The notes under the pieces were generated by a model. It was given only the letters and a program-made list of their open reading frames with translations, made no database searches and was not told the DNA's origin. The translations under genes and the position numbers were made by a program. A stretch of 64,000 bases of DNA from a virus (lineage: Duplodnaviria; Heunggongvirae; Uroviricota; Caudoviricetes): positions 289,291-353,290 of IMG/VR virus record IMGVR_UViG_3300021431_002946. One strand, 5' to 3'. Below, in pieces: positions 6,317 through 25,386 of the stretch (positions within the stretch are counted from its first letter, which is position 1; each line of letters opens with the position of its first letter).

Positions 6317-6388
6317 GCTATAAAGTAATCATGAATCTGGAGGGAAATTATTTTAATGCATTTTAATATTGTAGAAAGGAGAAACTTA

Positions 6389-7452: not shown

Positions 7453-8808
7453 ATGAAGAAAACACATCAAAGAATTACTAGAGGACTTGCGGCTGGTCTT
7501 TTAGTAGCAGCCTTAGCCGCAATGCCTGTTTCTGCTGCGCCTATTGGTAGTGATACTGGTATCGCTGAAGGTGGACCATCAGTAACAATTGATAAGGTTA
7601 TAGCTATTTATAATGATGGTTATAATAAGTCTTGGAATCCAGATGTAACTTATACATTTGAAGTTTCTGCAGCTACAGTTGATAACGTAACTGTTACAGA
7701 TAGTAATGGTACAGTTGTTACAGTTAAGCCTGGTGTAGCAGCAGCTATCGCAGGTCAGTCTGGTGGTAAAGCAACTGTAACTTGCGATTTTGCATCTGCA
7801 GAAGTTGTTGATACTACTTCTACTCTTGCAGAAGGTCTTAAGAGTACATTTGAGATTGGATTTGATGTAACAGCGTTTGCTACTACTGGTCCTGGTATTT
7901 ATCGTTTTAAGATTGACGATGTTACTCCTGCTGCAACTCTTTTAGCTGCTGGTATTGTAAGACCTGCAGGTTATGAAGCAACAAAGTATCTTGACGTTTA
8001 TGTTAAGACAGATACTGCAGATCCTACTCAGTTAGTAATTGATGGTTATGTATTAATTGATACTAATACATCTCTTGAACCTGATGATAGTCATAAGGAT
8101 CCTGGATTTAGACCTGTTGTTACAGAAACTCAGATTCCTGTACCTGGTACAACTATAGAACAACCTAGTGCTACTACATCTAGTTATGGTGTAACTGGTA
8201 TTAATGGTGATAATACATTTGACTATTATAAGACAGTTAACCTTACAGTAAGTAAAGATATTACTGGTAACATGGCAGATACATCTCATGCATTCCCATT
8301 TGTAATTGGTCTTACAAATCAGACTGGTGCAGCTGTTCCTGCTACTGTTTATGTAGGTAATGCTGCAAATGCATTAACTGGTAAAACTAATGCATCATTT
8401 AATGCTAACTTAGCAAAAGATGGAACTTATCTTGTATATGGTATCAATCCTCTTGCTACTGTTAATGTAAAAGAGACAAATGATACAAATGATACATATA
8501 GAGCCTCTATTAAAGTAAATGGTGCTGATGACGGTGCACAAACAGCTCTTGCACATGGAGATGAAAAAGCTATGACTGCTTTAGCAGTATCTGACTATGA
8601 TTCTTCTGCAGCTGCAGTTCCTGCAACTATTACAACAGCTAATGGTGCTAATGCTTCTGCTACTGCTGCATTTGAGAATAATCTTAATGCTGGTACACCT
8701 ACAGGTATCGCTCTTATGGTTGCTCCTTTTATTGCAATTGCTGCAGTAATTGCTACAATTTTTGGTATTAACAAAATTAAGACCAAGAAAGAGACTGACG
8801 CTGAGTAA
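7453..8808 (+). CDS. secreted pilin-like surface protein with sortase-type C-terminal sorting signal (TPTG)
   Basis: signal peptide LAAMPVSAAP; C-terminus GTPTG + hydrophobic stretch + NKIKTKKE tail; T/V/A-rich beta-rich body. Confidence 0.6.
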   Translation: MKKTHQRITRGLAAGLLVAALAAMPVSAAPIGSDTGIAEGGPSVTIDKVIAIYNDGYNKSWNPDVTYTFEVSAATVDNVTVTDSNGTVVTVKPGVAAAIAGQSGGKATVTCDFASAEVVDTTSTLAEGLKSTFEIGFDVTAFATTGPGIYRFKIDDVTPAATLLAAGIVRPAGYEATKYLDVYVKTDTADPTQLVIDGYVLIDTNTSLEPDDSHKDPGFRPVVTETQIPVPGTTIEQPSATTSSYGVTGINGDNTFDYYKTVNLTVSKDITGNMADTSHAFPFVIGLTNQTGAAVPATVYVGNAANALTGKTNASFNANLAKDGTYLVYGINPLATVNVKETNDTNDTYRASIKVNGADDGAQTALAHGDEKAMTALAVSDYDSSAAAVPATITTANGANASATAAFENNLNAGTPTGIALMVAPFIAIAAVIATIFGINKIKTKKETDAE

Positions 8809-8894
8809 GTTTTAATGTAAAGGACATTACTTGACATTATTTTAATAGTAATGTTGAGTAATGTCCTATTTTAAAAAAAAATAGGTACTAAAAT

Positions 8895-9401
8895 ATGAAA
8901 AAGTGTAAGGAATTTATAAAAAAGCATAATGAATTATTTCTAGCAATATTGAAATTAACAGTATTTGCATTGGCTTTATTTATATGTTTTGGAGTAATTT
9001 TAGGTATAAAGACAATGGATTCAGATTATATGCGTCCTGGATTAAAATATCGAGATAATGTAGTTTACTCTCGTTATGGAAATGATTATATTTTAAGGGA
9101 TATGATTATTTATGAATATGAAGGAAAATTATATTTTGGACGAATTGTTGGAATGCCTGGAGTAACGATTCGAACTGATGCTAACGGCAATATTTATCAG
9201 AATGATAATCTTGTATACGAAGAAAACATCAACTATACTTCTAAACGATCGATGGAAGTAGAGTTATCCTTAAAAGATGACGAGTATTTTGTTATATGCG
9301 ATAATCGTTCTCAAAATTTTGATAGTAGAAAGTTTGGACCTATTTCAAAAGATAAATTTAAAGGAAAAGTAATAATGGTGTTGAGGCGATTCGAAATATG
9401 A
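8895..9401 (+). CDS. signal peptidase I (S26) homolog, apparently non-catalytic (SipA/LepA-like pilus assembly factor)
   Basis: box D GRIVGMPGV and box E DNRSQNFDSR present. Box B Ser is Tyr (DYMRPGL) and box D Lys is Gly by hand alignment to SipS. Confidence 0.65.
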   Translation: MKKCKEFIKKHNELFLAILKLTVFALALFICFGVILGIKTMDSDYMRPGLKYRDNVVYSRYGNDYILRDMIIYEYEGKLYFGRIVGMPGVTIRTDANGNIYQNDNLVYEENINYTSKRSMEVELSLKDDEYFVICDNRSQNFDSRKFGPISKDKFKGKVIMVLRRFEI

Positions 9402-10114
9402 AATGGGAAAAAAGAGTACATAAAATCGTTTCTTTATTTATAGAAATATGTTGTGTTATTATTCTTTTACTCATGGGATATTTTATATATGACGTTATTA
9501 ATATACAAAGATCTGCTAATGTAGATAATTATATAAAAGAAATTAAACCAACCATAAATAAAGAAACAAAAGAAGTAGATTTATCAGCTTTACAAGCAAT
9601 AAATCCTGATGTTGTAGGTTGGTTAACTCTAGATGATACAAGAATTGATTATCCTGTTTTACAAGGTAATCCTGATTATACGTATTTAAATAGAGATATG
9701 TACGGTAATGTAAGTCTTACTGGTTCATTATTTATAAGTTATCAAGCAAATCGTTATTTTGAAGATGATTATACCATAATATATGGTCATCATATGGAAG
9801 CTGGCGGTATGTTTGGCGCAATAGATTATTATGAAGATGAAAACTATTTTAATGAACATTTAACAGGCACTCTAATTACTGAAAAGAAAATTTATGATTT
9901 AAAAGTACAAGCGTTAATATATTTAGACGCATATAGCGAAATATATTCTAAAAAAGATATAAAAACATTAAAAAAATTTATTAAAAACACAAAAAATTAC
10001 GAAGTCAAAATTGGTAACATAGAGATTACAGACAAGACTTTATTACTGTCTACCTGTGGTCCCAATGGAAACACAGATAGAATTATTTTAATATTAAGTA
10101 TGGAGGAAAGATAA
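9398..10114 (+). CDS. srtB: class B sortase
   Basis: N-terminal TM; DYPVLQG, IIYGHHM (His), LLLSTCGP (TLxTC Cys), downstream Arg. Confidence 0.85.
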   Translation: MKWEKRVHKIVSLFIEICCVIILLLMGYFIYDVINIQRSANVDNYIKEIKPTINKETKEVDLSALQAINPDVVGWLTLDDTRIDYPVLQGNPDYTYLNRDMYGNVSLTGSLFISYQANRYFEDDYTIIYGHHMEAGGMFGAIDYYEDENYFNEHLTGTLITEKKIYDLKVQALIYLDAYSEIYSKKDIKTLKKFIKNTKNYEVKIGNIEITDKTLLLSTCGPNGNTDRIILILSMEER

Positions 10115-13100
10115 TGCTAAAGACAAAAAGAAAACTTCTGGCAACACTTGTAGCATTCACATTAGTCATGACATCAATTATGCCTAATGTTGCTTTGGCG
10201 TTAGAGTCAGTAGAAGACACTCAGCCTACTACTAAGATTACAGAAACAGAGCCTGCTGCTTCTACAAAATCTACAAAAAAGCCAGAATCTTCAAAGCCTA
10301 AAGAAGCAAAAGAGGCAACTGAAGATACAACAAAAGCTACTTCTGAATCAACAAAGGCAACTTCAGAAACAACTAAAAAGCAAGTAGAAATAACTACTAA
10401 GGCTACTGAAGAAACTAAGGCTACTGAAGCTACTACTTCAGAGACCACTAAGACGTCAGAAGAGACTAAAGCTAGTGAATCTACTCCAAAGGAATCAACA
10501 GAAACTTCAGCTGAAACAGCAAGTACAACTGAAACTTCTGAGACTAAGGAGACTAAAGAAACTGCAGAAACAACTGTAGAAACTTCTGAATCTTCTAGTA
10601 ATACAGTACCTTTAGAGTCTACTACTGAGGAATCAAAGTCTTCTGAATCTACTACAGAAGAAACTATTCCTACTGAATCTGGAGAAGTTACTGAGTCTTC
10701 TGATCCTATTGAGAGCACAGAATCTACAGAGTCAACTGAGCCTACAGAGTCAACTGAAGAAACAGAACCTTCAGAGTCAAGTTCAGAAACTAGTGAACCT
10801 GAAGAAACAGAATTTAATCAGTCTATTACAGTAGATGGAATTAAGATTACTGTTACAGCTGATAAAGGTGTTTTCCCTAATGGAGCAGAATTAACTGCTA
10901 AAAAGGTTGAAAATAATAAAATTAATAAAGAAGATAACGTAGTTGCTTCTATGACTTTTGATATTGCTATTATGCTCAATGGAGAAGAAATTGAGCCTGA
11001 TACTACAAAGGGTCAAGTAAAAGTTACTTTCTTTGATGAAAGATTTGAAGATAAGAACTTAGACGCAGCTATTTACCATACTTCAGATGATAAAAAGACT
11101 GAGGAATTAAAGATTAAGAATGTTGAAGGTGGTGCTGAGGTTACTACTGATGGATTCTCTCTTTATACAGTCGAATTTACTTATGAAGATATGAAGTATA
11201 CTTTAACTGGATATGCTTCAGCTCCTCTTAAGACAATTCTTGAAAAAGTTGGTCTTACTGGTGAAGTTACAGACGTTAAAATAAGTAATGAAAAACTCGT
11301 TAGATATGAAAATGGTTATATCTTTGCAGTTAAAGCTTTCTCTACAAAAGAATGGATGAAAGTTACTATTAATGATATTACTTATATTATTACTCTTACA
11401 GATAGTCCTGACTCTCCTGAAGACGCTACTGCTGGAACTGATGCTTATGCAATTCTTTATGATTCTGGTAAATTAGTTTTCCAGAAAGGTCAAGATGTTA
11501 TTGGCGCTTATGGTACTAAGCAACAAGAATGGTTAGTTCCTACAGAATTTGTAGATAATTCTGATACTACAGATGTAGATGAATCTATTCCTGCTTGGTG
11601 TTCTTATGCAGAAAACATTAATAAAATCATATTTGTAGATAACATTAAGGGTATTACTTCTTTAAAGACATATTTTAAGGGTCTTAAAAATATTACTACA
11701 ATTTCTAATATTGATAGATTAGATGTTTCAACAGTTACTACTCTTAATGCTTTATTCATGGATTGTTCATCTATTACAATATTAGATTTATCATCTTGGA
11801 ATACTGCAAAAGTTACAGATATGTGCGCAATATTTAATGGATGTTCTTCATTAAAAACATTAAATTTATCTGGTTGGAATTTCAGAGGATTAAATTATGG
11901 TGGTGCATTTAGTGGTGCACTTAATGGATGTACATCATTAAAGACTTTAGATTTATCTAGTGTTAAAATGCCTGTAAAAACTTATGATGTAGGTTTATGC
12001 CTTGGTTGGCATGCTGCAGGTGGTGGAATAAATCTTGATAGTATTGATGTATCAAATATTGATTTAACACAGACTAAATCTTTGTATGGTTTCTTAACTA
12101 TTTCAGCAAAACAGATTATTGGTCTTACTACTTGGGATGTTTCTAGAGTAGAATGTATTAGTAGTTTGTTTAATGGAAATAATCTTGTTGAAAACATTGA
12201 TATTTCTGGTTGGGATTTAAGAAATATGACAAATACTAATGGTTCTGCAATATTTTCTGGTTGTGCTAATCTTAAGACATTAAATATGTCTAATGTAAAA
12301 ATGCCTGCTGATACTGGTGCATCTAATTTCCAATTAGGTTGGGGTAATATTGGTGGTACTTTAAATAGCATTAATGTTACTAACTTAGACTTATCAAATA
12401 CAACAAGTCTTTGTGGTTTCTTAACAGTTCCTGCTAAGAATATTATAGGTCTTGATACATGGGATACGTCTAATGTAACAAATTTCAATAGTTTATTTAA
12501 TGGTCAAAAATTTATTACTGAATTAGATTTATCTAATTTCACATTTAAATCAGGTGATACAGTTTATGCTATGTGTGCATCAATGCCTAAATTAACTAAG
12601 ATTATATTACCTGCATCATATAATAATTTAACCATTAATGAAGATAATAACATAAGTGTTTCTTATATTTGGACTAATGTAGAAACTGGAGAAAGTTTTA
12701 AAGCAGATCAAATTACTTCCGCTGGTACATATGAAAGAATTTTAGGTAATGATGCATATGTAAACACAAATGCTTATGCGATTCTTTATACAGATGGTAC
12801 ACTTATCTTCCAGAATAATGATGAAGTAGATTCTACACATGGTTCTGTAGTACAGACTTGGGAAGTTGATGAATCATCACATCCTTGGACTTCATCTGAA
12901 TATAAAGATCAAGTTACTAAAATTATTTTTGCAAATAAATTAATTGGTAGAACATCTGCGTACTATATGTTTAGTAATATGTCTAATTTAACTACAATTG
13001 AAAATTGTGGAAATTTAGATACTTCAAACATAACTACAATGAACTCAATGTTCTATAATGCTTGTAACTTAACATCTATTGATGTTTCAGATTGGGATAC

Positions 13101-16100
13101 GTCAAAAGTTACTAATTTTAGATGGATGTTTGGTTGTGATGATAATGCAGCTAATAATTCTAAATTAGTTTCTGTAATAGGAGCTAAGAATTTAATAAAG
13201 GTTGCTGCTACTGCTGCAAATGCAATGTTCAATAATAACTATTCTTTAAAGAATATTGATACATCTAATTGGAACATGTCAAATATAACAAATACTAGCT
13301 CAATGTTCGCACAGTGTGATGCATTAACAAGTCTTAATACTACAAATTGGAATATGTCAAACAATACAAATATGTATGCTATGTTCTATGATAGTAATTC
13401 ATTGAAGACAGTTGATATATCTAACTGGAATATTTCTAGTAATATGACTAATACAAGTTGGTCATTTACAAGAACAAAAGTTACATCACTTGATATGAGT
13501 AATTGGAATATGTCTAATGTAACTGATACATATTATATGTTCGGTGGATGTAATGATTTAACTAGTGTTAAATTGGGCGCTAATTGGAAATTTGCAACAA
13601 ATAATAGTAGTGGAACTTTTGGTTATAATCCTACATTTAAGAATTCATCTAATGAATATGTTCAAATGTCTGATATTTATTCTTGGGATTCTAGTAAAGC
13701 AGATACATATATTATATGCGCAACTGTTGGAGAAAATGCTTATGCTTTACTTTATGGAGATGGATATTTAGTATTCCAAAAAGGTCCTACGCCAGATCCT
13801 AATCATGGTGAATTAATTGCTTCTTGGGCAGTTAAGGACGCTAATTATGATTGGACAGGTTATTCATCAAACATTAAATATGTTGATTTTAAGGATGAAA
13901 TTTATGGTAGAACATCCACAGATCATATGTTTAATGAATGTGTATACTTAAACGAAGTATATAATGCACAAAAACTTGATATGTCTCAAGTTACTAACAT
14001 GTCATTTATGTTTGCATATGATAAACAGTTAACTAAAATTAATGGATTAGAACAATGGAAACCTTCTAATTGTACAGAATTCAATTATGCATTTGGTTCA
14101 TATAATGCAGAAGGTACTAAATTAACTGAAATTGATATGTCTAATTGGCAGATTAATGAAGTACATCAATTATTTAGAATGTTTGAGAATTGTTCTAATC
14201 TTAGAGTAATTGATTTATCTGGTTTTAACTGCGTAAGTGGTTATGCATGTGATAATATGGTAAATGGTTGTAAGAGTTTATCTAAGATTATTTTACCTGA
14301 AAGTATTGCTGTATATTCTGAAAATAATAGAACGAGAATTGGTTTAAATTCATCAAGTCAAACTTGGTTAAAAGATGGAACTACTGTAGTTGATTATCAA
14401 GAAGCTATTGTTGGTGGTACTTATGAGAAAATTCTTAATGTAGTTACATTTAAGAAAGACTCAGATGCTGCTAATGATGTAATTTTCTATATTACTGAAA
14501 CTAATACATCTTTTGAAATACCTGATGAATTAAAAACTTTACCTAACAATACTGAAGGTGAAGCATTTATTGGATGGTATGATGGTCAGGATAATAAATA
14601 TACAAATGAAAATATTACAAGAAATACTCCAAGTACATTATATGCAAAATTTGGTCATGCACCTCAAGATGCAATTTATGGAGATGACTTGTATAAATTA
14701 CTTTATATAGATGCAAATAATCAGTATGTAGTTGTATATCAAAAAGGAAATACTCCTACTTCTGGTTACGGTACATTTGTAAGTAGCACATTAGTTACAA
14801 CAAGTCAATCAAATGAATATGTAAATGGCGTTTATACTCCAGTTACAATATTAGATTTTGATTCTTATACAACAAATAATTATTCTAATATGCCTACAAA
14901 GGTAGTATTTAGAGATAGATTGATTAATTTACCTAAAGCTGATGTTAGATTTACATCAGAAAGAGTTAAAAAGTATGAAAACTTAGATTATATTGATATG
15001 TCTAATGCAACTGGTATTAGATTTTCTAATAAGTCTAATGTATATGGTTGTTCTGGAATGGCAACTTGGAATACCACTAATATTACTAATATGTATCAAT
15101 TATTCTATAATACAAAAGTTGCTACTACAGATATTCCTAATTTAAGTAATTGGAATACAAGTAATGTTACAAATTTAAGTTATGCATTCTATAGTACAAA
15201 TGGTGAAGTTAAAGGTCTTGAATCTTGGAATACTTCTAATGTAACAGATATGTCTTACATATTCTATAGTGCTAATATGCTTAATACAGATTCAATTAAA
15301 GATTGGAATGTATCTAAAGTTAAAAAATTTAAGTCTGCATTTTCATCAAATACAGCATTACTTGAAGCAGAATTAAATTGGGATATGAGATCTGCTGAAG
15401 ATATGTCTTATATGTTTGATAGTTGTTATAAATTATCTAAAATTAAAACTAATAAGACATTTATTGCAACAGCTAATACTAATAATATAAATCATATTTT
15501 CTATTGCTGCGATAAATTAACAGATATTACAGATTTAGCAAAATGGGATGTTTCTAATGTAACAGATATGTCTTATGCATTTGCAAATTGTAATAAATTA
15601 GCTATTATAAATGCATTAAGTGGATGGGATGTTTCTAATGTTACTACAATGAAACACATGTTTAGTGCATTTGCTAATGCTAGTTATGATACTTGGTCAG
15701 GCTATGATGCTGAACGTGGTCCTGGAAATTTAGTTGATTTATCTGCATTAAGTAATTGGCAAACTAGTAGTCTTACAGATATTAGTTTCATGTTCTATTG
15801 CCAAGCTTATTTAAATAATATTAATGGAATATCTGGTTGGGATGTATCTCATGTTACAGATATGACAGCTACATTCTGTGGATTAAGCAGACTTACTTCT
15901 TTAGAAGCACTTTCTAGTTGGACAACTAGTTCATTAACTAAATTATGTTCTACATTTAAAGGAATGTATGCATTAAAATCTGTTGATGGATTAGAGAATT
16001 GGGATGTAACTAATGTTACTGATATGTCATTTATGTTAGATCTGCGTTATTATGCAAACTCATTAAGAGATGTATCTGCACTTTCTAATTGGCATGCTAA

Positions 16101-19100
16101 TTCTTTAAATGATTATAGATATATGCTCTATAACTGTAATTTAATTCCTGAAGTAGATTTTAGTAATTGGGATTTATCTAGAACTGGTACAAATTCTAGA
16201 AGTGATTATGTATTTAATGGATGTGATAAACTCATAAAAATTACTTTACCTGCAAATTTTGTAGTTTATAGTTCTTCTTCATATGGTACTCCATTTAATT
16301 CAGATTGGATTTATACAAAAGATAATTCTGTTGTAAACTTACAAACTGAATTCTCTAATTGGACTGTTGATAAAGCTGGTACATATATAAAGAATTATTA
16401 TGTATCATTATATCCTATGGGTGGTACAGTTGATCCTACTAAGATTGAAACTAATTTGAATCAGTCTATAGACGAACTTCCTACACCTGTAAGAGATGGA
16501 TATAATTTCTTAGGTTGGTTTGATTCTGAAGGAACTCTTAGAACTTCAATTCCAGCTGGAGAGTATATAACTAGCTTATTTGCTCAATGGGAGTCAAAAG
16601 GAACTTATACATTAGTATTAGATCCTAATATTAATGGTTATGAACCTTATGTTGTAGAATTAAAACTTGATGAAAAGTTTAGACTTGATTATACTCTTTT
16701 AAATATTCCTGATTCATTTGAATTTAGTCAGTGGACAGAAAGAAAGAGTGGAGATGGTGAAGTTTATACTCAAAATCAAATCGTAGTTGGATTAGCTGAA
16801 CTTGGTGAAACAGTTACAATTTATGCACAGTGGATAACACATAGTTCATTCCCTGTAAAGATGCATGCAGTTAATATTTTAACTGGTGAAAGAACATCTC
16901 TTGGAAATGTAGATGTACGTACTAATGAATATTTTGATATTTCTGCTATAAAAAATATAGTTAAAAATAAAGTTGGTAATACATATATTTATTATGCATC
17001 TTATAGAAATGATTTAGATTGTGTACATTTTGAATATAATGAAGAAGATGTAATTCATTATGAGAATCAAGGTTATAATTCTGCGTATACAAATGCAGGA
17101 AAATCTACTGGTGAAGATTTCTATTATACATATGATAGAATAAAAGATGATAGAGGTCAATTTGTTAATTCTTCACATATGTGGACTTTAGATGATTTTA
17201 ATAATGATATATATGTTTATTATATACCTGCATTAAAAGCAAGAGTCTGGTTTAACAAAGAATCTGTATCTAAATTACCAGTAGATGAGCTTATTATGAC
17301 TGTCGATGGTAAACAATATAAATCTGGTGAATATGTATTTGATTTAGATAATTCTAGATTTTCACCTAGTGCAAGAGTAAGTATTGGTGAAGGATATGTT
17401 CCTTCTGCTTATGCTAATGCTCGTTGGGAATATTATACAGATTCACTTCTTAGAAATTTTGCATATATGATGGCAGAAGAAAAGAATTATTCATTTAATT
17501 ATCCTGTTTCATTAAATAATGCAAGAGAAGGTAAGGGTTGTCATAAGAGTGAAGAAGCTACAGGAATGAAGTATAGTTATTTGTGGTGGAATTCTCCTAA
17601 TGATATAATGGATATTAGTATTACATTTGATTTAAATGTAGTATATGATTTTAATAATTCTGGACAATATGCTGGTCCATCTGGTTTACAAGCAAGAAAT
17701 CTTTATACATATTATTCACAATATCCATATAGTATAGATAATATTACTCAGGTATATGGTATAACAGCAGAATCTAATGATGGTTATATTATTGAAGGTT
17801 GGTATACTGCGCCTGAAGGTGGTACTAAAGTATATGATCCTAATGCAGAATCATATAGAAATCCTATGACACCTCCTATAGACTTTTCTAATTGTCCAGT
17901 TGTAGATTATTCAGATAAATTAGACCAAATTAATAATGATATTTATGTATTTGGTGAACCTAGAATGACGCAAAATAAGTATGTTACTTTATATGCGCAT
18001 TGGGTTCCTAAGTCTGAATATAATGCAAGCTCATCACAATCTACATTTACAGTAATTCATATTAATGATTCACATAATCCAACTGTAACAGAATATGGAT
18101 ATTCACAAAAATTTGTAGCTCCAAATAAGCTTACAGATGTACGTTGGAATAGCTATATGGATGATAGTTGGTCTTATGTAGATAATCCAGATGAATCATA
18201 TTATTATGATGGTTATTGGACAATGGAGAAAGACTATGCTTGGGAGAAAGATCCAATAGAATTTGAAGATCATATCTTTGGTGGATGGTACACAGAACCT
18301 AATGGTCAAGGCACAAAAATTACAAAAGATATGATAATAACTGAAACTGGCGATATTACATTCTATGCATATTGGAAGAAACCTACTGAAAAGATTAATT
18401 TTAGTCTTGAAACAAATGGAGATCATCCAACTAGTGCTGAAATTAAGTTTAGTAATACAGCATATTCAAATTATTATTATATTACACCTACTACTGCATA
18501 TATTTATGGTGCAGACACAGTAGCTGGTTATATGATTCCTTATGCTATGACTGATGAAGAGTATGATTTTATTGGTTGGTATGATTCAAATAATCATAAA
18601 CTTGAAGTTGGTGATACATTTGTAGATGGTGCAACTTATTATGCTAAATGGGAAAAGAATATTGTTTCAGTTGAAGGTATAGATTATGATTTTAATTTTA
18701 CTTTCAAAAATAGCAAAAATAAGATGAAATTAAGTAATCCTTATATTTCAAATGCATCTATAGATATATTATTTAAAATTAGTCATACAGAAAATATTTT
18801 ACCTGAAAAAGCTATTAAAATCTATATACCTACTACAAATATTTTAAATACATCTGTTATTAGTTATAATGGTGATTTAGAAAATGGTAAATACTATAGG
18901 TATGATAATCCATCTTATGATGAGACTACTTATAATAATTATAATTGTATGATTTGTAATGCATATGATATTACAGGTAGTGCTGGTTTTACTAATGAAA
19001 AATCTAATGTTTCAATTGAAGAAGATGGCTCTGGTATACAATTCTATGATGCAGATGGTAATATATATAAACCTGGAAAAGATTATTATTCTAAAGTATA

Positions 19101-22100
19101 TAAATCAGATCCTATTATATTAACTATTGATACAAATGGAGATGGTACTCCTGATATAGTTAAGTATAAATATTTATATATTGAAAGTGATCCTATTACA
19201 GGTGCTGGCGTATCTAATTTTGATAATATTAATATTAATGGTTATATAACTAAAACTTGGAATTCTGAGTGGGGTGAAGAACCTGCAGACGCTAGCGATT
19301 ATCTATTTGTAACATGGCAAATTAGTAATACATATCTTGATATGTATGATCGTACACAGTATTATAATAACCAAGACATGTATTTCTTTGCAAATACTAA
19401 GTTACCTATAACCAGTGCTGGTCAAAAAGTATATAATAAGCAAGTTGAACATAATGGAGAAAATTATGAATTTGCATTTTCTGTACTTGCAAAACCAGGT
19501 AATTATAGTACTCAAGAAACACATTCTGAGAATAATACTATTGTTATGAAATATCCTAAGTCTCAGTTTAGTTATGATGCGCAATTAGGTGAAATTTCTC
19601 AGCAATTTGAGATTTTAGTATCACCAAGAAATCCTTATATTAATGGTCAATGGTATGAAGATACTGTTATTAAGACTGGTAAGGTTACTTGGAGTTGGGC
19701 TGAAGGTTCATCTGAAACCAATGGTCGTGATATGTGGGCTAATATGGGACGTTTCAGCGGTGGTTATGTAAGTTCTGTAAATAGTAGAAATACTATTCAG
19801 AAACAAAGACAATATGCTGTTTTAAATAACACTCTTGAAATGGAATGGTATAGCTTATATGCCCAGAGAATTATTAATGGTAATGATGAATTTAGTGTTT
19901 CAGTAAAACCTGGAGATTTCTCTTATGCTTCAGGTGCTTCAGAAAATTGTTATATGTGGCAACCTGCAACTGGAAGAACAGATTTAAGTACATATGATTA
20001 TTGTATTACTGGAATTCAATACGCTGTATTTAATGGTTATTCTGAAAAGTTAAATGATGGTTATGATCCTAATGTACCTATATATGTTGGAGATATTCAA
20101 GAAGTTAACAGAAATAAATATGTTGAAATCTATGTAATGTATAGAGGTTCTAATACTTGGACTTTACTTGATAAAAATGGTTCTGTTTGGAGTGCGCCTT
20201 CTAACTTAAGGTCTTATAATGATGGACATGTTAATGTTCAATTTAATCGTGGTTATTCTCGTAATTTCGATTCTGATGAATGGGAATACGGTGAACCTTA
20301 TAGTTATATTTATGATACTAGAGTTGTTGGTGTTAAAGTTAAAGCTAAGTTTGAAACTGGATCTAATTATCAAGCTGTAGTTGTTGTTCCTAAGATTAAA
20401 ATTTTCCCTAGCTTTACAACACAAGACAAAGTTAAAATGGACTTTGATCAAGAAGTAAAATCTGCTATTACTATGACTGACTTTACAATTGATGGTTATA
20501 AGTCTAATGCATCTTATAGAAAAGGACAATGGTCTGATGTTACTGGTGCAATTACTGATTTAGGTCTTACTACTTGGTATCTTACTTCAGATGTTACTGA
20601 TCTTGATTTAAGAAATAATATTAAAACATTAAATCTTAATACAGGCAATGTAAGTGGTCTTGAAGAAGGAGATGCACAGGTTGTTTGTGAAGTTATAAAT
20701 CAGGCGCAAAATAGTACATATTACAAAGCAATTACTTCTGGTGATTATTATGTATTATTACCTGAAAATACTTCACTTAAGTTAGCTGAAACATACTTTG
20801 CTGGTACTAGTTATGCAAATTCAAGCTATTTTACAAATACAGATATAAATAGCTGGAATTATGGTGGATTAAGTTATGACAGTATGGGCGGATTAACTCC
20901 AGAAGAATGTAGTGTTGAAACTATTGAAAACTGGGAAAATAGTGGTAGAACAATGGTTATTTATCATCTTAAAGATTTAACTAAGAAATATACTGAAATA
21001 GATTTATCTCATTATAATAGTTTAATCTTTAAATTAACACTTCATAGAGAGAATGAAGATATTTATGGTATTAATGGTGATGTTGCAACTCTCTTTGTAG
21101 ATAAGTCTGGTACTTTCTACATAAATAGAAGAGAAAAGTATGAAAATGCTGGTGCAACTGTACATGAATACTTTAGTAACTTAAATTCTCAAAATGCAGC
21201 TAAAGAAAGATCTATGGCTTATGCTTATGCTGACTTTACTTTCTATACTGAAATCTATAATACTGGTTCCGGTAATGAAAATATGGCGCATCAAGATGGA
21301 TTTAATGATTATGTTGCAAATAGTTCAAATCAATATACTAATAATGTAAATGTTTTCCCTGGTGAAAACTATACATATAAAGTTCTTTGGTCACAAAGCG
21401 GTAAGAAGATTATCGATTATGGAGATCATACAGATGAAATTGATAATGAAACTAATAATGCAATAATTTATACAAGACTTGATGGTGTTGGTGTATTTAA
21501 AGGCGTTTATGCACCTGCTATAACAGGTAAAGTTTATTTAGATGATGAACATTTAACATCAGAAAATGTAACTGTTACACCTACTATCTGGTACTGTAAA
21601 GATCCTAATTTTGCAAGTATAAATAATTTTGCTGATTATGATTTAAGCACAATTATTTTAGATGCAGATCACGGTTGGTATACTTCTGCAAATCTTGATA
21701 GTGATGCTAAGGTATATGGAATGGCATTTGATTATTCTAAAGATAGTCAAGGCAGAGATGTATATCTTGCAGGTGATAAATTTATTGGTATTACTATTTA
21801 TCAACAGAATTTAGAGTTAGCAAATCAAACATTTAATAGTGAGAGTAGAATTTCTATTACAAACTTTAATAGTGCTGATTATGGTGGATTAGTAACAGTT
21901 AATGTAGCTATTCCTGACCTTAAGATTGATGTAGTTTCAAATCCTGCGTCTGGTACAGCAACTAATCCTACTGCAGTTCGTTATGAACAAGACTTAGTTT
22001 ATACTTGGACAGTTCATAATAGAGAAGATAGAGCTATTAATGATGTTATAGTTTCATTTAAGGTTCCTGATGCAACTACTTGTACATTAGATAAAATTAA

Positions 22101-22476
22101 AGTTGGTAATATCTCTATAACAGATTCTATTGCTATTAAAAATGCTACACTTGAAAATGGTATAGTTACACTTACTATTAAGACATTAAGTGCAAATGAA
22201 GATTTTGTAATAACTGAAAATACTTATGTATCTACAGGTGAAAATGGAATTATGATTACAAATCAAGGTTTCATTAATGGATATAATGGAATAATTCCTA
22301 CTGATACTCAAATAGATGCAATGAAATCAGATATTACATATCATATTACATTAACAATGCCTGAACCTACAGGTATAGTATTAAACGTAATGCCTTATGC
22401 TTTAATCTTTGGTGCAATCTGCGTAACATTCTTTGTTTCAAAGAAAACATTAAAGAAAAAAGAAGAAGAGGAATAA
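10114..22476 (+). CDS. giant (4120 aa) sortase-anchored adhesin: S/T/E-rich stalk, 4 BspA/DUF285-type LRR modules, Listeria-Bacteroides repeats, DUF11-like domain, C-terminal PEPTG sorting signal
   Basis: Uninterrupted 12.4-kb ORF. Signal peptide; WDxSNVTxMxxMF repeats; FxGWYTxxxGxxxxxYAKW repeats x5 or more; C-terminus PEPTG + TM + KKTLKKKEEEE. Confidence 0.85.
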   Translation: MLKTKRKLLATLVAFTLVMTSIMPNVALALESVEDTQPTTKITETEPAASTKSTKKPESSKPKEAKEATEDTTKATSESTKATSETTKKQVEITTKATEETKATEATTSETTKTSEETKASESTPKESTETSAETASTTETSETKETKETAETTVETSESSSNTVPLESTTEESKSSESTTEETIPTESGEVTESSDPIESTESTESTEPTESTEETEPSESSSETSEPEETEFNQSITVDGIKITVTADKGVFPNGAELTAKKVENNKINKEDNVVASMTFDIAIMLNGEEIEPDTTKGQVKVTFFDERFEDKNLDAAIYHTSDDKKTEELKIKNVEGGAEVTTDGFSLYTVEFTYEDMKYTLTGYASAPLKTILEKVGLTGEVTDVKISNEKLVRYENGYIFAVKAFSTKEWMKVTINDITYIITLTDSPDSPEDATAGTDAYAILYDSGKLVFQKGQDVIGAYGTKQQEWLVPTEFVDNSDTTDVDESIPAWCSYAENINKIIFVDNIKGITSLKTYFKGLKNITTISNIDRLDVSTVTTLNALFMDCSSITILDLSSWNTAKVTDMCAIFNGCSSLKTLNLSGWNFRGLNYGGAFSGALNGCTSLKTLDLSSVKMPVKTYDVGLCLGWHAAGGGINLDSIDVSNIDLTQTKSLYGFLTISAKQIIGLTTWDVSRVECISSLFNGNNLVENIDISGWDLRNMTNTNGSAIFSGCANLKTLNMSNVKMPADTGASNFQLGWGNIGGTLNSINVTNLDLSNTTSLCGFLTVPAKNIIGLDTWDTSNVTNFNSLFNGQKFITELDLSNFTFKSGDTVYAMCASMPKLTKIILPASYNNLTINEDNNISVSYIWTNVETGESFKADQITSAGTYERILGNDAYVNTNAYAILYTDGTLIFQNNDEVDSTHGSVVQTWEVDESSHPWTSSEYKDQVTKIIFANKLIGRTSAYYMFSNMSNLTTIENCGNLDTSNITTMNSMFYNACNLTSIDVSDWDTSKVTNFRWMFGCDDNAANNSKLVSVIGAKNLIKVAATAANAMFNNNYSLKNIDTSNWNMSNITNTSSMFAQCDALTSLNTTNWNMSNNTNMYAMFYDSNSLKTVDISNWNISSNMTNTSWSFTRTKVTSLDMSNWNMSNVTDTYYMFGGCNDLTSVKLGANWKFATNNSSGTFGYNPTFKNSSNEYVQMSDIYSWDSSKADTYIICATVGENAYALLYGDGYLVFQKGPTPDPNHGELIASWAVKDANYDWTGYSSNIKYVDFKDEIYGRTSTDHMFNECVYLNEVYNAQKLDMSQVTNMSFMFAYDKQLTKINGLEQWKPSNCTEFNYAFGSYNAEGTKLTEIDMSNWQINEVHQLFRMFENCSNLRVIDLSGFNCVSGYACDNMVNGCKSLSKIILPESIAVYSENNRTRIGLNSSSQTWLKDGTTVVDYQEAIVGGTYEKILNVVTFKKDSDAANDVIFYITETNTSFEIPDELKTLPNNTEGEAFIGWYDGQDNKYTNENITRNTPSTLYAKFGHAPQDAIYGDDLYKLLYIDANNQYVVVYQKGNTPTSGYGTFVSSTLVTTSQSNEYVNGVYTPVTILDFDSYTTNNYSNMPTKVVFRDRLINLPKADVRFTSERVKKYENLDYIDMSNATGIRFSNKSNVYGCSGMATWNTTNITNMYQLFYNTKVATTDIPNLSNWNTSNVTNLSYAFYSTNGEVKGLESWNTSNVTDMSYIFYSANMLNTDSIKDWNVSKVKKFKSAFSSNTALLEAELNWDMRSAEDMSYMFDSCYKLSKIKTNKTFIATANTNNINHIFYCCDKLTDITDLAKWDVSNVTDMSYAFANCNKLAIINALSGWDVSNVTTMKHMFSAFANASYDTWSGYDAERGPGNLVDLSALSNWQTSSLTDISFMFYCQAYLNNINGISGWDVSHVTDMTATFCGLSRLTSLEALSSWTTSSLTKLCSTFKGMYALKSVDGLENWDVTNVTDMSFMLDLRYYANSLRDVSALSNWHANSLNDYRYMLYNCNLIPEVDFSNWDLSRTGTNSRSDYVFNGCDKLIKITLPANFVVYSSSSYGTPFNSDWIYTKDNSVVNLQTEFSNWTVDKAGTYIKNYYVSLYPMGGTVDPTKIETNLNQSIDELPTPVRDGYNFLGWFDSEGTLRTSIPAGEYITSLFAQWESKGTYTLVLDPNINGYEPYVVELKLDEKFRLDYTLLNIPDSFEFSQWTERKSGDGEVYTQNQIVVGLAELGETVTIYAQWITHSSFPVKMHAVNILTGERTSLGNVDVRTNEYFDISAIKNIVKNKVGNTYIYYASYRNDLDCVHFEYNEEDVIHYENQGYNSAYTNAGKSTGEDFYYTYDRIKDDRGQFVNSSHMWTLDDFNNDIYVYYIPALKARVWFNKESVSKLPVDELIMTVDGKQYKSGEYVFDLDNSRFSPSARVSIGEGYVPSAYANARWEYYTDSLLRNFAYMMAEEKNYSFNYPVSLNNAREGKGCHKSEEATGMKYSYLWWNSPNDIMDISITFDLNVVYDFNNSGQYAGPSGLQARNLYTYYSQYPYSIDNITQVYGITAESNDGYIIEGWYTAPEGGTKVYDPNAESYRNPMTPPIDFSNCPVVDYSDKLDQINNDIYVFGEPRMTQNKYVTLYAHWVPKSEYNASSSQSTFTVIHINDSHNPTVTEYGYSQKFVAPNKLTDVRWNSYMDDSWSYVDNPDESYYYDGYWTMEKDYAWEKDPIEFEDHIFGGWYTEPNGQGTKITKDMIITETGDITFYAYWKKPTEKINFSLETNGDHPTSAEIKFSNTAYSNYYYITPTTAYIYGADTVAGYMIPYAMTDEEYDFIGWYDSNNHKLEVGDTFVDGATYYAKWEKNIVSVEGIDYDFNFTFKNSKNKMKLSNPYISNASIDILFKISHTENILPEKAIKIYIPTTNILNTSVISYNGDLENGKYYRYDNPSYDETTYNNYNCMICNAYDITGSAGFTNEKSNVSIEEDGSGIQFYDADGNIYKPGKDYYSKVYKSDPIILTIDTNGDGTPDIVKYKYLYIESDPITGAGVSNFDNININGYITKTWNSEWGEEPADASDYLFVTWQISNTYLDMYDRTQYYNNQDMYFFANTKLPITSAGQKVYNKQVEHNGENYEFAFSVLAKPGNYSTQETHSENNTIVMKYPKSQFSYDAQLGEISQQFEILVSPRNPYINGQWYEDTVIKTGKVTWSWAEGSSETNGRDMWANMGRFSGGYVSSVNSRNTIQKQRQYAVLNNTLEMEWYSLYAQRIINGNDEFSVSVKPGDFSYASGASENCYMWQPATGRTDLSTYDYCITGIQYAVFNGYSEKLNDGYDPNVPIYVGDIQEVNRNKYVEIYVMYRGSNTWTLLDKNGSVWSAPSNLRSYNDGHVNVQFNRGYSRNFDSDEWEYGEPYSYIYDTRVVGVKVKAKFETGSNYQAVVVVPKIKIFPSFTTQDKVKMDFDQEVKSAITMTDFTIDGYKSNASYRKGQWSDVTGAITDLGLTTWYLTSDVTDLDLRNNIKTLNLNTGNVSGLEEGDAQVVCEVINQAQNSTYYKAITSGDYYVLLPENTSLKLAETYFAGTSYANSSYFTNTDINSWNYGGLSYDSMGGLTPEECSVETIENWENSGRTMVIYHLKDLTKKYTEIDLSHYNSLIFKLTLHRENEDIYGINGDVATLFVDKSGTFYINRREKYENAGATVHEYFSNLNSQNAAKERSMAYAYADFTFYTEIYNTGSGNENMAHQDGFNDYVANSSNQYTNNVNVFPGENYTYKVLWSQSGKKIIDYGDHTDEIDNETNNAIIYTRLDGVGVFKGVYAPAITGKVYLDDEHLTSENVTVTPTIWYCKDPNFASINNFADYDLSTIILDADHGWYTSANLDSDAKVYGMAFDYSKDSQGRDVYLAGDKFIGITIYQQNLELANQTFNSESRISITNFNSADYGGLVTVNVAIPDLKIDVVSNPASGTATNPTAVRYEQDLVYTWTVHNREDRAINDVIVSFKVPDATTCTLDKIKVGNISITDSIAIKNATLENGIVTLTIKTLSANEDFVITENTYVSTGENGIMITNQGFINGYNGIIPTDTQIDAMKSDITYHITLTMPEPTGIVLNVMPYALIFGAICVTFFVSKKTLKKKEEEE

Positions 22477-22491
22477 GTTAGCTTAATTAAA

Positions 22492-22525
22492 TAGGAGAGT
22501 CATTAATTTGGCTCTCCTATTTTTA
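22492..22525 (+). terminator. intrinsic terminator after the giant gene
   Basis: TAGGAGAG..CTCTCCTA + T5. Confidence 0.7.
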
Positions 22526-22621: not shown

Positions 22622-22650
22622 TTTACATACCAAAGATAATTATATATAAT
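22622..22650 (+). promoter_or_regulatory. TTTACA-N17-TATAAT promoter
   Basis: exact consensus spacing. Confidence 0.6.
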
Positions 22651-25232: not shown

Positions 25233-25306
25233 TGAGGTGTGGTGTAGCGGCAGCACACGGGTCTTTGACACCCTTGGTGTAGGTTCAACCCCTACCACCT
25301 CAGCCA
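25233..25306 (+). tRNA. tRNA-Gln (anticodon UUG)
   Basis: Hand-folded cloverleaf. Acceptor TGAGGTG/CACCTCA, D-stem GTGT/GCAC (one GU), anticodon loop CTTTGAC, T-arm GTAGG-TTCAACC-CCTAC, discriminator G, encoded CCA. Confidence 0.8.
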
Positions 25307-25310
25307 AAAT

Positions 25311-25386
25311 GCTCCAGTAGCTCAGTTGGTAGAGCAATAGACTTTTAATCTATGGGCCGTGCGTTCGAACCGCATCTGGGGCACCA
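25311..25386 (+). tRNA. tRNA-Lys (anticodon UUU)
   Basis: Acceptor GCTCCAG/CTGGGGC, D-arm GCTC-AGTTGGTA-GAGC, anticodon arm ATAGA-CTTTTAA-TCTAT, T-arm GTGCG-TTCGAAC-CGCAT, discriminator A, encoded CCA. Confidence 0.85.

Follow-up and report, generated by a model that had tools for sequence, protein, structure and literature searches.

[quoted passage not shown] Class B sortases can also anchor proteins straight to the wall; the motif in C. difficile is (S/P)PxTG. The sorting motifs of streptococcal FCT pili are EVPTG, QVPTG, VPPTG and VVPTG (PMC7900414), with the consensus (E/Q/V)(V/P)PTG (PMC3019223), and SipA-like proteins without the Ser-Lys dyad are known pilus-polymerization factors (PMC4049620). 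The 64,000-nt stretch of DNA analysed as a whole (the window) resembles FCT loci in having a class B sortase whose nearest solved relative is Spy0129, a dyad-less signal-peptidase homologue nearest to SipA, pilin-like proteins and an adhesin. As in FCT loci, the adhesin motif is of the form xxPTG, not LPXTG, and a third protein has a different motif.

A sortase cassette and its giant adhesin

The cassette comprises two pilin-like proteins, a SipA-like chaperone, a class B sortase and the adhesin, with the first four genes directly upstream of the adhesin gene (Table 1). The same five-gene order occurs in five other loci (L002, L003, L004, L005 and L040), whose adhesins have 1–4 modules. Translation, domain scans and self-comparison bore out the initial annotation of a stop-free 12.4-kb frame for a modular adhesin: the ORF at 10114–22476 (+) encodes 4120 aa that run from a signal peptide through an acidic Ser/Thr/Glu spacer, a conserved N-terminal domain and four DUF285/PARCEL LRR modules to Listeria-Bacteroides repeats, a β-rich Ig-like stalk (~1200 aa), a DUF11-like domain and, finally, PEPTG, a membrane helix and a Lys-rich tail.

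Table 1. Features of the cassette and the adhesin gene (aa, adhesin residues unless given as a length)
Feature	Position	Strand	Basis
Pilin-like protein 1, 358 aa: signal peptide, GPGTG, membrane helix, Lys-rich C-terminal tail	6356..7432	+	
Pilin-like protein 2 (DUF7601), 451 aa: signal peptide, GTPTG, membrane helix, charged tail	7453..8808	+	
Terminator-like hairpin, 20-bp stem, just 3' of the DUF7601 pilin gene	8822..8866	+	consensus scan only
SipA/LepA-like signal-peptidase homologue, 168 aa, without Ser-Lys dyad	8895..9401	+	Peptidase_S26 60 bits; TIGR02227 81 bits
Class B sortase, 238 aa	9398..10114	+	TIGR03064 156.5 bits (cut-off 153.75)
Putative Sec-type signal peptide, aa 1-29 (…VALA/LE; cut between A and L)	10114..10200	+	read from translation
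Low-complexity acidic Ser/Thr/Glu-rich spacer, aa 30-240	10201..10833	+	composition
Conserved N-terminal domain without repeats, two β subdomains, aa 241-443	10834..11442	+	
Module 1, aa 444-886: AYAILY header/N-cap, DUF285/PARCEL LRR solenoid, IILPAS footer, GTYE C-cap	11443..12771	+	
Module 2, aa 887-1208: AYAILY header, 6-9 PARCEL repeats, variant footer VKLGAN	12772..13737	+	DUF285 100 bits
Module 3, aa 1209-1445: AYALLY header, 2-5 PARCEL repeats, IILPES footer	13738..14448	+	DUF285 52.5 bits
Listeria-Bacteroides repeat 1, aa 1453-1514, between modules 3 and 4	14470..14655	+	Flg_new E 5.6e-4 on segment; own HMM
Module 4, aa 1526-2095: degenerate LYKLLY header, 12-14 PARCEL repeats, ITLPAN footer	14689..16398	+	DUF285 193 bits, 5 stretches
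Five more Listeria-Bacteroides repeats, aa 2097-2848, with β-rich inserts between	16402..18657	+	Flg_new 69.6 bits, 4 stretches
Tyr/Asn-rich all-β stalk of Ig-like domains, aa 2861-3935	18694..21918	+	HMMER, AlphaFold, Foldseek
DUF11/CLIPPER-like β-sandwich, aa 3936-4082, last before sorting signal	21919..22359	+	PF01345, model
Sorting signal, aa 4083-4120: PEPTG, ~22 hydrophobic residues, KKTLKKKEEEE	22360..22473	+	translation
Terminator-like hairpin, 14-bp stem and T-rich tail, 13 nt past adhesin stop	22489..22522	+	consensus scan

The best solved match of the sortase is 3PSQ (E 1.3e-29), which is Spy0129, the pilus-polymerizing class B sortase of S. pyogenes; His131/His132, Cys220 and Arg228 are invariant across five orthologues. 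Because its stop codon overlaps the adhesin start (TAATG) and a GGAGGA Shine-Dalgarno sequence is present, the two genes are translationally coupled. The SipA-like protein matches S. pyogenes SipA best (4N31, E 6e-12), along with LepA (4K8W); Tyr45 stands opposite SipA Asp48 and a Gly opposite SipA Gly85, so that both dyad positions are substituted, as they are in all six loci (the serine position is Tyr, but Phe in L040). The dyad is thus lost, and the alignment predicts a catalytically dead protein. The hairpin after the DUF7601 gene is possibly an attenuator between pilin and assembly genes, and the one past the adhesin gene is likely, judging by its sequence, to mark the end of the operon.

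Pilin-like protein 1, a candidate basal or minor pilin, is 45% identical to a 455-aa L002 protein but lacks the ~95-aa SpaA domain of the latter; its orthologues have the motifs PPRTG, PPKTG, ITSTG, ITKTG and EPKTG. Pilin-like protein 2 matches Pfam DUF7601 at 48 bits (cut-off 27) and NCBIfam pilus_ancill_1 weakly, is 51% identical to its L002 orthologue, and is the candidate shaft (major) pilin; motifs in this family are GTPTG, GPPTG, PSVTG, PEITG and GSPTG. The C-terminal sorting signal of the adhesin was correctly recognized in the initial annotation. Eleven members of the family keep P[DE]PTG, with IPTG or VPTG in relatives further removed; by its sequence, PEPTG is a conserved signal of the class B sortase/FCT type rather than a degenerate LPXTG, a point previously overlooked. 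The GTPTG of the DUF7601 pilin and the PEPTG of the adhesin together fit the FCT xxPTG pattern.

In our view the gene product is a giant fibrillar surface adhesin that is Sec-exported and presumably forms the tip of a pilus assembled by sortase, as in the streptococcal FCT systems; we give this reading as a whole a probability of about 0.6. The earlier proposal of a receptor-binding tip of a fibre system is thus supported, as an adhesive tip, by the upstream pilins, SipA-like chaperone and class B sortase. Cleavage, polymerization, tip position and ligand are what we infer, as follows. The exported adhesin would be retained in the membrane through its C-terminal helix; the sortase encoded upstream, aided by the dead SipA-like protein, would cut the T-G bond of P-E-P-T/G and link Thr4086 to a lysine of the DUF7601 pilin, which would polymerize to form the shaft; and the 358-aa protein, with its differing motif GPGTG, is the candidate base subunit that would be passed to the cell wall. 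From the cell outward, the order would be the DUF11-like domain, the Ig-like stalk, Listeria-Bacteroides repeats, the four LRR solenoids, the N-terminal domain and the acidic tail, which would place the N-terminal domain, not the LRR modules, at the distal end. If this reading is true, the element supplies its own means to change what its carrier cell adheres to.

The same sortase might instead fix the adhesin and the two smaller proteins to peptidoglycan, giving a stand-alone wall-anchored fibrillar adhesin and no pilus. Class B sortases of several Firmicutes do anchor single proteins, and NPQTN-specific SrtB structures are among the matches, but the closest solved sortase is a pilus polymerase, not an NPQTN anchor sortase. 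The sorting motifs point both ways: PPKTG, PPRTG and GPGTG of the first cassette protein resemble the (S/P)PxTG of C. difficile SrtB substrates, whereas xxPTG is common to the DUF7601 pilin and the adhesin and distinct from the motif of that first protein. The DUF7601 protein has no solved homologue that we could find, and its acceptor lysine cannot be pointed out from sequence; moreover, 4120 aa would already suffice for a fibre without a shaft. On the other hand, the cassette conserves DUF7601 and SpaA-domain proteins, and a dead SipA-like protein, of the kind that serves in pilus polymerization, is kept in 6/6 loci. We therefore regard wall anchoring alone as unlikely, though a serious alternative to the pilus tip.

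Repeat modules, stalk and last domain

Upstream of the modules, the spacer is 16% Ser, 25% Thr and 21% Glu, with Phe (0.8%) as sole aromatic residue, and imperfect 18–21-nt tandem repeats lie in its DNA (10315–10766). The N-terminal domain that follows is the best-conserved part of the adhesin in the family (76% identity to homologue P0005), a feature that had escaped the initial annotation.

Self-similarity in a windowed self-BLASTP comparison is present and confined to aa ~400–2100. The header read by eye at four places was located at aa 444, 887 and 1209 (AYA[IL]LY) and, degenerate, at aa 1526. There are indeed four modules, but their lengths are 443, 322, 237 and 570 aa rather than ~400 each, and the array is not strictly tandem, since a Listeria-Bacteroides repeat splits modules 3 and 4. 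Likewise, the IILPxS motif said to close each module occurs at aa 830 and 1392 (IILP[AE]S) and in variant form at aa 2043, but not in module 2, where only VKLGAN is found. The DUF285/BspA-type LRR assignment holds, with 359 bits for Pfam DUF285 (cut-off 25; 11 stretches) and 214.7 bits for the NCBIfam PARCEL repeat TIGR02167 (cut-off 30; 14 stretches). With an HMM built from the protein's own sequence, repeats of ~25 aa numbered 25 at domain E ≤ 0.01 and about 30 when the limit was relaxed to E < 1; almost all fall inside the modules (roughly 5, 6–9, 2–5 and 12–14 in modules 1–4). The module 1 solenoid holds an internal duplication of ~110 aa.

The module duplication had been taken to suggest recent expansion, with repeats able to recombine to vary length or specificity. 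Two observations would suit a recently expanded tandem array that recombines within populations: module number differs among family members (1, 2, 2, 3, 4 and 4), and no part of the adhesin diverges faster than the modules, which are 33–49% identical to those of P0005 (49% for module 3). Against this, identity between modules is just 28–36% in protein and at best 69.5% over 141 nt in DNA, no direct repeats of > 52 nt at > 83% identity were found, and the two assemblies of the element encode an identical 4120-aa protein. Because module identity is low and the four-module order is colinear with that of P0005, itself diverged to ~40% identity, we reject recent expansion, and such an array is very improbable; low inter-module identity and the lack of long near-identical repeats likewise leave no substrate here for present-day recombination between modules. 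Module number varies in the family, but on long time scales. We propose that these fast-diverging modules may be binding surfaces.

Listeria-Bacteroides repeats, annotated as five or more, number six (aa 1453–1514, 2097–2161, 2180–2242, 2540–2632, 2698–2756 and 2804–2848 by own HMM), with Flg_new/List_Bact_rpt above cut-off and a TIGR02543 score of 49.6 bits. Uncharacterized β-rich inserts lie among them, e.g. aa 2243–2539. The Tyr/Trp/Asn-rich composition reported for the C-terminal region was confirmed (Tyr 8.5–10%, Asn 7.5–9.7%, Trp 1.7–2.5%), and the region is β-rich in the AlphaFold model. The stalk is conserved in the family: an exhaustive HMMER search found 26 representative relatives, for P0005, P0006 and P0007 the alignment covers the full 1200 residues (35–44% identity), and matches in more distant giant proteins are colinear. 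The stalk model is mostly β, with pLDDT 65 overall and 80–94 over the last 350 residues, and its closest solved folds are the Ig-like stalks of the Gram-positive wall-anchored adhesins PrgB and AgI/II. The DUF11-like call is clear in orthologues but below threshold in the window's own sequence (PF01345 E 0.015, 16.1 bits, cut-off 24.6; missed in whole-protein scans); PF01345 matches 11 of 12 aligned last domains, this weak match counted (best E 1.3e-13), and the modelled domain has pLDDT ~84–94.

The carrier element

The element is ~467 kb long (assemblies of 466,645 and 467,278 bp), with ~29% GC in the window. The 10 kb upstream contain 41 tRNA genes, and the element also has genes for split RNA polymerase β/β', DnaB, primase, a UvsX-like recombinase (phrog_97, 155 bits), T4 gp30.3-like and Lar-like proteins and NAD+ salvage; among IMG/VR viral contigs, 28 relatives of its DnaB helicase were found. 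From this gene content the element is likely a huge phage of a low-GC Gram-positive host, although the ~85 kb of it that were examined showed no capsid, terminase, portal or tail gene. A huge-phage-like element is a setting in which sortase pili had not previously been described. That the adhesin belongs to the phage particle itself, as a virion fibre or receptor-binding protein, is scarcely credible: it has a Sec signal peptide, sorting motif, membrane helix and basic tail, its gene is coupled to those of a sortase and a signal-peptidase homologue, and this export and sorting machinery acts outside the host membrane rather than in the assembly of virions in the cytoplasm. Nor were structural genes found nearby.

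A recent study reassigned sortase-encoding genomes of a huge-phage collection to megaplasmids, named 'Hodor', whose giant proteins are sortase-anchored (PMC12934698). The element might similarly be a conjugative megaplasmid whose adhesin, pilus or not, clumps donor and recipient for mating like the PrgB aggregation substance. The top Foldseek match of the stalk is indeed the Ig-like region of PrgB (8BEG, E 2e-18); such matches are generic, however, as integrin α-chain ectodomains and α-2-macroglobulin-family proteins score next, along with AgI/II C-terminal domains. A PcfJ-like gene 8 kb upstream and DUF932 downstream are also typical of conjugative elements, and IMG/VR contains no relative of the cassette sortase, but no relaxase, VirB4, VirD4, Rep or Par was found in the same ~85 kb, and huge phages typically have what is seen here: a tRNA array, a split polymerase, a UvsX-like recombinase and genes of the gp30.3 and Lar kinds. 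Hodor elements, moreover, have 44–47% GC and giant proteins of another kind (S-layer/MBG) (PMC12934698). On balance, a mating megaplasmid is improbable.

Comparison with known systems

The window cassette differs from FCT loci in gene order, in its P[DE]PTG motif, in having Tyr (Phe in L040) at the dyad serine where SipA has Asp, in its DUF7601 or SpaA-type pilins, which have no detectable similarity to FctA, and in lying on a huge mobile element rather than the chromosome. The adhesin has about five times the size of Cpa and, unlike Cpa, has no thioester domain in domain scans, but PARCEL LRR modules, Listeria-Bacteroides repeats and a long Ig-like stalk.

Related repeats occur in PARCEL/DUF285 surface proteins (PF03382, TIGR02167) of Mollicutes, Listeria and other microbes, and in BspA-type LRR_5 proteins such as Bacteroides ovatus BACOVA_01565 (PDB 4FDW). 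The window adhesin shares with PARCEL proteins the ~25-aa amphipathic repeat, the W(D/N)xSxVT…MF signature, strong HMM scores, a predicted LRR solenoid and surface location, and PARCEL repeats are, as here, associated with mobile elements (PMC2996958). It departs from them in that its repeats form four capped modules (AYAILY N-cap, IILPxS/GTYE C-cap) of one sortase substrate, neither a lipoprotein nor a single array, and in the weak dyad symmetry of the coding DNA.

Like PrgB (8BEG) and the AgI/II C-terminal domains (4OFQ, 5DZ9, 3QE5), the adhesin has a C-terminal string of β-sandwiches ending in a sorting signal, but its stalk is without sequence similarity to them. Its last domain falls in the DUF11/CLIPPER neighbourhood (PMC12617251); since the CLIPPER isopeptide-lysine position (by eye from P0011, IHK) is Val here, an isopeptide bond is doubtful.

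Hodor, from the human gut, is likewise a very large extrachromosomal Bacillota element that encodes a class B sortase of its own, together with giant secreted proteins bearing sorting signals (PMC12934698). Hodor elements carry Rep_3/ParABM, type IV secretion genes, their own SecYEG and trigger factor, and S-layer/MBG proteins of 7300 aa (PMC12934698); no such plasmid hallmark genes were seen in the examined parts of the window element, which is set apart from Hodor by its low GC, tRNA array, split RNA polymerase, UvsX-like recombinase and SipA/pilin cassette.

Repeat modules of the adhesin

The adhesin gene is an uninterrupted reading frame of 4120 codons, as the initial annotation held, and its product clearly belongs to both the PARCEL/DUF285 and the Listeria-Bacteroides repeat families. 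The whole protein scored 359 bits against Pfam DUF285 (PF03382; cut-off 25) over 11 stretches and 214.7 bits against the NCBIfam PARCEL repeat TIGR02167 (cut-off 30) over 14; scanned singly, modules 1-4 were all positive for DUF285, at 91, 100, 52 and 193 bits. An HMM built from the adhesin itself delineated 25-30 PARCEL units of 22-27 residues (~25) in tandem arrays. As in the BspA-type leucine-rich repeat (LRR) fold, the predicted LRR solenoid is closest to solved BspA/LRR_5 proteins; a phmmer search of PDB sequences with the whole adhesin gave nothing useful. Because self-BLASTP of the whole protein returned the identity match only, a windowed search was used instead, and this detected internal similarity, confined to residues ~400 to ~2100. 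Internal periodicity and above-cut-off matches to DUF285, Flg_new and PARCEL were thus both found, and the modular reading of the protein stands.

The four proposed module headers were located at residues 444, 887 and 1209 (AYA[IL]LY) and, in the degenerate form LYKLLY, at 1526. The footer IILP[AE]S, supposed to close each module, is present at residues 830 and 1392, but takes the form ITLPAN at residue 2043, and module 2 has only the variant VKLGAN. All four modules end in a further conserved cap resembling (A/G)GTY(E/I)K. Their lengths are 443, 322, 237 and 570 residues, not ~400 each, and the series is not strictly tandem because a Listeria-Bacteroides repeat lies between modules 3 and 4. 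In the 1.7 kb of module 4 DNA, dyad symmetry is seen in just five inverted repeats, all short and imperfect (74-81% complementary). The mature protein begins with an acidic Ser/Thr/Glu spacer encoded by imperfect 18-21-nt tandem repeats; this is the one stretch of the gene whose tandem DNA repeats might lengthen or shorten by slippage.

The module duplication had been taken to suggest recent expansion, a view that the comparisons contradict. Protein identity between modules is 28-36%. At the DNA level, the best inter-module match reaches 69.5% over 141 nt, the longest direct repeats span 26-52 nt at 61-85% identity, and Tandem Repeats Finder reported short imperfect arrays only, nearly all within the acidic spacer. 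In P0005 (4015 aa), the closest full-length homologue, all four modules recur in identical order; identity to the adhesin is 35%, 49% and 33% in modules 1, 3 and 4, rises to 76% for the N-terminal domain and is 37-54% across the C-terminal third. Since this order is common to both proteins despite ~40% identity, the expansion is older than the split between elements that are now ~40% identical. Module number varies across the family, from one in the 2592-aa protein of the related locus L040, through two in the homologues P0009 and P0011 and three in P0007, to four in P0005 and the adhesin; the counts for P0007, P0009 and P0011 rest partly on reading the sequences, because the header pattern is too strict for some copies. 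The family is a natural experiment in adhesin design: stalk, anchor and conserved N-terminal domain stay constant, and the LRR modules attached to them vary in number and diverge rapidly.

Stalk and C-terminal domain

Five or more Listeria-Bacteroides repeats had been anticipated, and six were placed with an HMM built from such repeats of unrelated proteins (residues 1453-1514, 2097-2161, 2180-2242, 2540-2632, 2698-2756 and 2804-2848). The signature GW(Y/F)(T/D)…(Y/F)A(K/Q/H)W is present, Flg_new (PF09479; cut-off 27) scored 47.4 bits with the whole adhesin and 69.6 bits with residues 2095-2900, and List_Bact_rpt (TIGR02543; cut-off 20.95) scored 49.6 bits. In whole-protein and segment scans, no Pfam family covers residues 2861-4120. 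Word-indexed protein searches with residues 2150-4120 returned only the adhesin itself and matches via the Listeria-Bacteroides repeats, and with residues 3480-4120 nothing. The stalk family surfaced only in an exhaustive HMMER search of 1.84 billion representatives, which yielded 26 relatives. Three of these (P0005, P0006 and P0007) aligned over all 1200 query residues at 35-44% identity, and more distant giant proteins gave matches in the same order.

An AlphaFold model of residues 2886-4085, made with 12 sequences, is almost entirely beta, with a pLDDT of 65 overall and 80-94 over the last 350 residues. The best solved Foldseek match was the Ig-like region of PrgB (8BEG, E 2e-18), followed by integrin alpha-chain ectodomains, alpha-2-macroglobulin-family proteins and the C-terminal domains of antigen I/II adhesins. 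TM-scores were low because domain orientations differ, so that these matches to a predicted model point only to a string of Ig-like sandwiches.

The DUF11-like domain assigned to the C-terminus in the initial annotation is right in kind, although its own score falls short: scanned alone, it gave 16.1 bits against PF01345 (E 0.015; cut-off 24.6). As 11 of the 12 aligned family domains, the adhesin's included, match PF01345 (best E 1.3e-13), the last domain is, by transitivity, classed as a divergent relative of DUF11/CLIPPER. DUF11 has been renamed CLIPPER and is a CnaA-like domain, often with an isopeptide bond (PMC12617251). In our family alignment, with columns assigned by eye, the first-strand lysine of P0011, P0013 and P0017 (IHK/VAK; identified by eye as the isopeptide lysine in P0011) is replaced by Val in the adhesin, and the Asn of TN(Q/T)(G/A) is retained. 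A search of the PDB with the DUF11-like profile gave a marginal match to the pilin Spb1 (E 0.057); matches to polyubiquitin were spurious, being summed over repeats.

Sortase cassette

The predicted sorting signal has the expected three parts, namely a PEPTG motif, ~22 hydrophobic residues and the basic tail KKTLKKKEEEE. The motif is P[DE]PTG in 11 family members and IPTG or VPTG in more distant relatives; the LPXTG pentapeptide of canonical wall-anchored sortase A substrates is absent, and no LPXTG-anchor family was matched in NCBIfam or Pfam scans. Four genes precede that of the adhesin on the same strand (see table), and the sortase/adhesin junction is a stop-start overlap (TAATG) with GGAGGA upstream. 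One terminator-like hairpin lies after the DUF7601 gene and another after that of the adhesin. The same five genes occur in the same order in five related loci (L002, L003, L004, L005 and L040), with related motifs.

The sortase passes the class B equivalog TIGR03064 (156.5 bits; cut-off 153.75), its His, Cys and Arg are invariant among orthologues, and its best solved match is 3PSQ (E 1.3e-29). This is Spy0129, the class B sortase that polymerizes the S. pyogenes M1 pilus and accepts (E/Q/V)(V/P)PTG (PMC3019223). The Peptidase_S26 homologue best matches S. pyogenes SipA (4N31) and LepA (4K8W) among solved structures; in place of the Ser-Lys dyad it has Tyr45, aligned with SipA Asp48, and a Gly, aligned with SipA Gly85 (PMC4049620), and these substitutions are kept in all six loci. 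The first cassette protein shares 45% identity with its 455-aa L002 orthologue and lacks the ~95-aa SpaA-type domain found just before the sorting signal there; its motif is GPGTG as against PPRTG or PPKTG. It may be a decayed or remodeled base pilin.

Coordinates of features in the window, adjoining sequence and locus L002
Feature	Coordinates	Length	Remarks
PcfJ-like protein	480-2057
Secreted protein (first cassette protein)	6356-7432	358 aa	same strand as adhesin; ends GPGTG, helix, basic tail
Orthologue of the above	L002:4442-5809	455 aa
DUF7601 protein		451 aa	upstream of adhesin, same strand; ends GTPTG, helix, basic tail
Peptidase_S26 homologue		168 aa	upstream of adhesin, same strand
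Sortase		238 aa	upstream of adhesin, same strand; stop overlaps adhesin start
Adhesin	10114-22476 (+)	4120 aa
Spacer tandem repeats	10315-10766
Promoter-like site	22622-22650		of the 341-aa gene
Type IV pilin-like protein	22706-23731	341 aa
tRNA-Gln(TTG), tRNA-Lys(TTT)	25233-25386
NAD+ metabolism set	28258-30512, 39372-47762
Two adjacent SPFH/Band_7 proteins	30637-32533
Glycosyltransferase-PgaD-like fusion	37491-39338	615 aa
UvsX-like recombinase	57382-58623
DnaB-like helicase	62343-63629
41 tRNA genes	L119:1-10000		10 kb directly upstream of the window
IS605-family TnpB	L006:14680-15810, L007:7924-9464		downstream of primase; ENA and JGI assemblies
Rpb2_6- and Rpb1_2-like genes	L006:17497-20983	744, 422 aa	~7-10 kb downstream of window end

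The cassette, motifs, folds and conservation observed suggest a pathway in which each enzymatic step and the ligand are predicted. Once exported, the adhesin would be kept at the membrane by its C-terminal helix. With the SipA-like protein assisting, the cassette sortase would then cleave it at Thr4086-Gly and attach it to the DUF7601 pilin, so that the adhesin becomes the first, distal subunit of a pilus. The base would be formed by the 358-aa protein, whose motif differs, and the LRR modules, perhaps with the conserved N-terminal domain, would bind the target. The main alternative is that the adhesin is anchored directly to the wall with no shaft. That the adhesin is a virion fiber is very unlikely because it bears export and sorting signals.

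Directly downstream of the adhesin gene lies a gene, preceded by its own promoter-like site, for a 341-aa type IV pilin-like protein that has an N-terminal methylation motif of the prepilin type and a GNTGNTGNT low-complexity tract; L002 has a 350-aa gene at the same position. This protein would be a second, unrelated kind of pilin beside the sortase pilus.

Carrier element and relation to known pili

The window corresponds to a section of a 466,645-bp contig, and a second contig, of 467,278 bp, is recorded as carrying the adhesin too; contigs of relatives reach 515 kb. The five other cassette loci are metagenomic, their elements being up to 380-515 kb where on record. All long ORFs lie on one strand and the GC content is ~29%. 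Within the ~85 kb examined are genes for DnaB, primase, split RNA polymerase beta/beta'-like proteins, a UvsX-like recombinase, T4 gp30.3-like and Lar-like proteins, an NAD+ salvage set and a PcfJ-like protein. The 41 tRNA genes upstream, together with two in the window, make a set of a size typical of huge phages; the upstream array is on one strand, with almost no protein-coding genes between. With a genome >200 kb, many tRNA genes, and replication and transcription genes of phage type, the carrier shows features by which huge phages are recognized, and it is likely to be one. No capsid, terminase, portal or tail genes were seen in the ~85 kb examined out of 467 kb, and comparison with PHROGs revealed no structural genes beside the cassette in related loci.

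A plasmid mating-aggregation role for the adhesin is the second alternative to the pilus reading. PcfJ is known from conjugative plasmids, and the PcfJ-like protein also matches PHROGs families of unknown function; no plasmid replication or transfer genes were seen in the ~85 kb. The upstream 10 kb had no megablast match in collections of plasmids and phages, where the tblastn matches of the RNA polymerase beta-like protein were all weak. The DnaB-like helicase has relatives in 28 IMG/VR contigs (32-45% identical). A profile of the cassette sortases found no relatives in IMG/VR, the adhesin C-terminus and DUF7601 pilin matched nothing there, and the pilin matched nothing in the GTDB genome collection. 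Sortases were previously unreported in phages according to a 2026 preprint, in which the sortase-bearing genomes of a huge-phage collection are reported as megaplasmids (PMC12934698); the present element differs from those in GC content, gene content and giant proteins. Among GenBank phages, the best sortase match (MT836522, 'Bacteriophage sp.') was rejected: overlapping ORFs crowd both its strands, unlike the AT-rich window, and no giant gene lies beside its sortase. Matches in Listeria and Staphylococcus 'phages' may be host srtB DNA.

Other genes add to the picture of the element. The adjacent 744- and 422-aa genes have weak Pfam matches to RNA polymerase Rpb2_6 and Rpb1_2, and the pair looks like a putative split, very divergent multisubunit RNA polymerase. 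The NAD+ set comprises NUDIX, NADAR, Tpt1-like RNA 2'-phosphotransferase, NAPRTase, AAA_33 kinase and isochorismatase/nicotinamidase-like proteins and a fused NMN adenylyltransferase-NAD synthase; it is as described for gut jumbo phages and fits the 'NAD-jumbo phage' theme (PMC11662467). A Y1 transposase gene lies beside TnpB in the JGI assembly (L007), with no such gene call in the ENA assembly (L006), so that the two copies of the element differ slightly here. The family-2 glycosyltransferase fused to a PgaD-like domain resembles PgaC/PgaD poly-N-acetylglucosamine synthase and, together with the pilus cassette, suggests that the element alters the surface and aggregation properties of its host.

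A bolder reading, to which we give a probability of about 0.4, is that the element is a ~467-kb huge phage with a low-GC Gram-positive host, that its pilus kit (two pilins, SipA-like chaperone, class B sortase and 4120-aa PARCEL-LRR tip adhesin) is complete, self-sufficient and used to redecorate the surface of the occupied cell, and that related elements retarget carrier-cell binding by swapping one to four LRR modules on a constant stalk. If true, a sortase-assembled pilus would for the first time be attributed to a phage. Both package and carrier are unusual, a self-contained and conserved five-gene pilus cassette being borne on an element that resembles a huge phage. Should the carrier be a phage, this would mean that huge phages can install whole surface organelles on their hosts, and aggregation, colonization or phage spread in gut-type communities could be affected.

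A class B sortase together with a SipA-type protein that has lost the dyad is the combination that defines FCT-2/3/4 pili (PMC7900414). Like FCT pili, the cassette has a pilus-associated class B sortase in the cluster (TIGR03064, with Spy0129 the nearest solved), a signal-peptidase-like protein without the Ser-Lys dyad (SipA/LepA) and xxPTG on both the candidate shaft pilin (GTPTG) and the adhesin (PEPTG). Agreeing with FCT pili in these testable cluster-level features, the system would work like an FCT pilus, with covalent polymerization of the shaft pilin through a lysine, and the tip position of the adhesin, predicted. Unlike the Cpa-type tip adhesin of FCT pili, the adhesin has no detected thioester domain, as none was returned by Pfam or NCBIfam scans of the whole protein and ten segments. 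The parts and logic of the system are already known, and the adhesin alone is large but recognizable, because its domains all belong to known types and it would be assembled by the logic of streptococcal FCT pili; what is new is the packaging into capped modules, the P[DE]PTG signal, a stalk family that is conserved and, most of all, the carrier.
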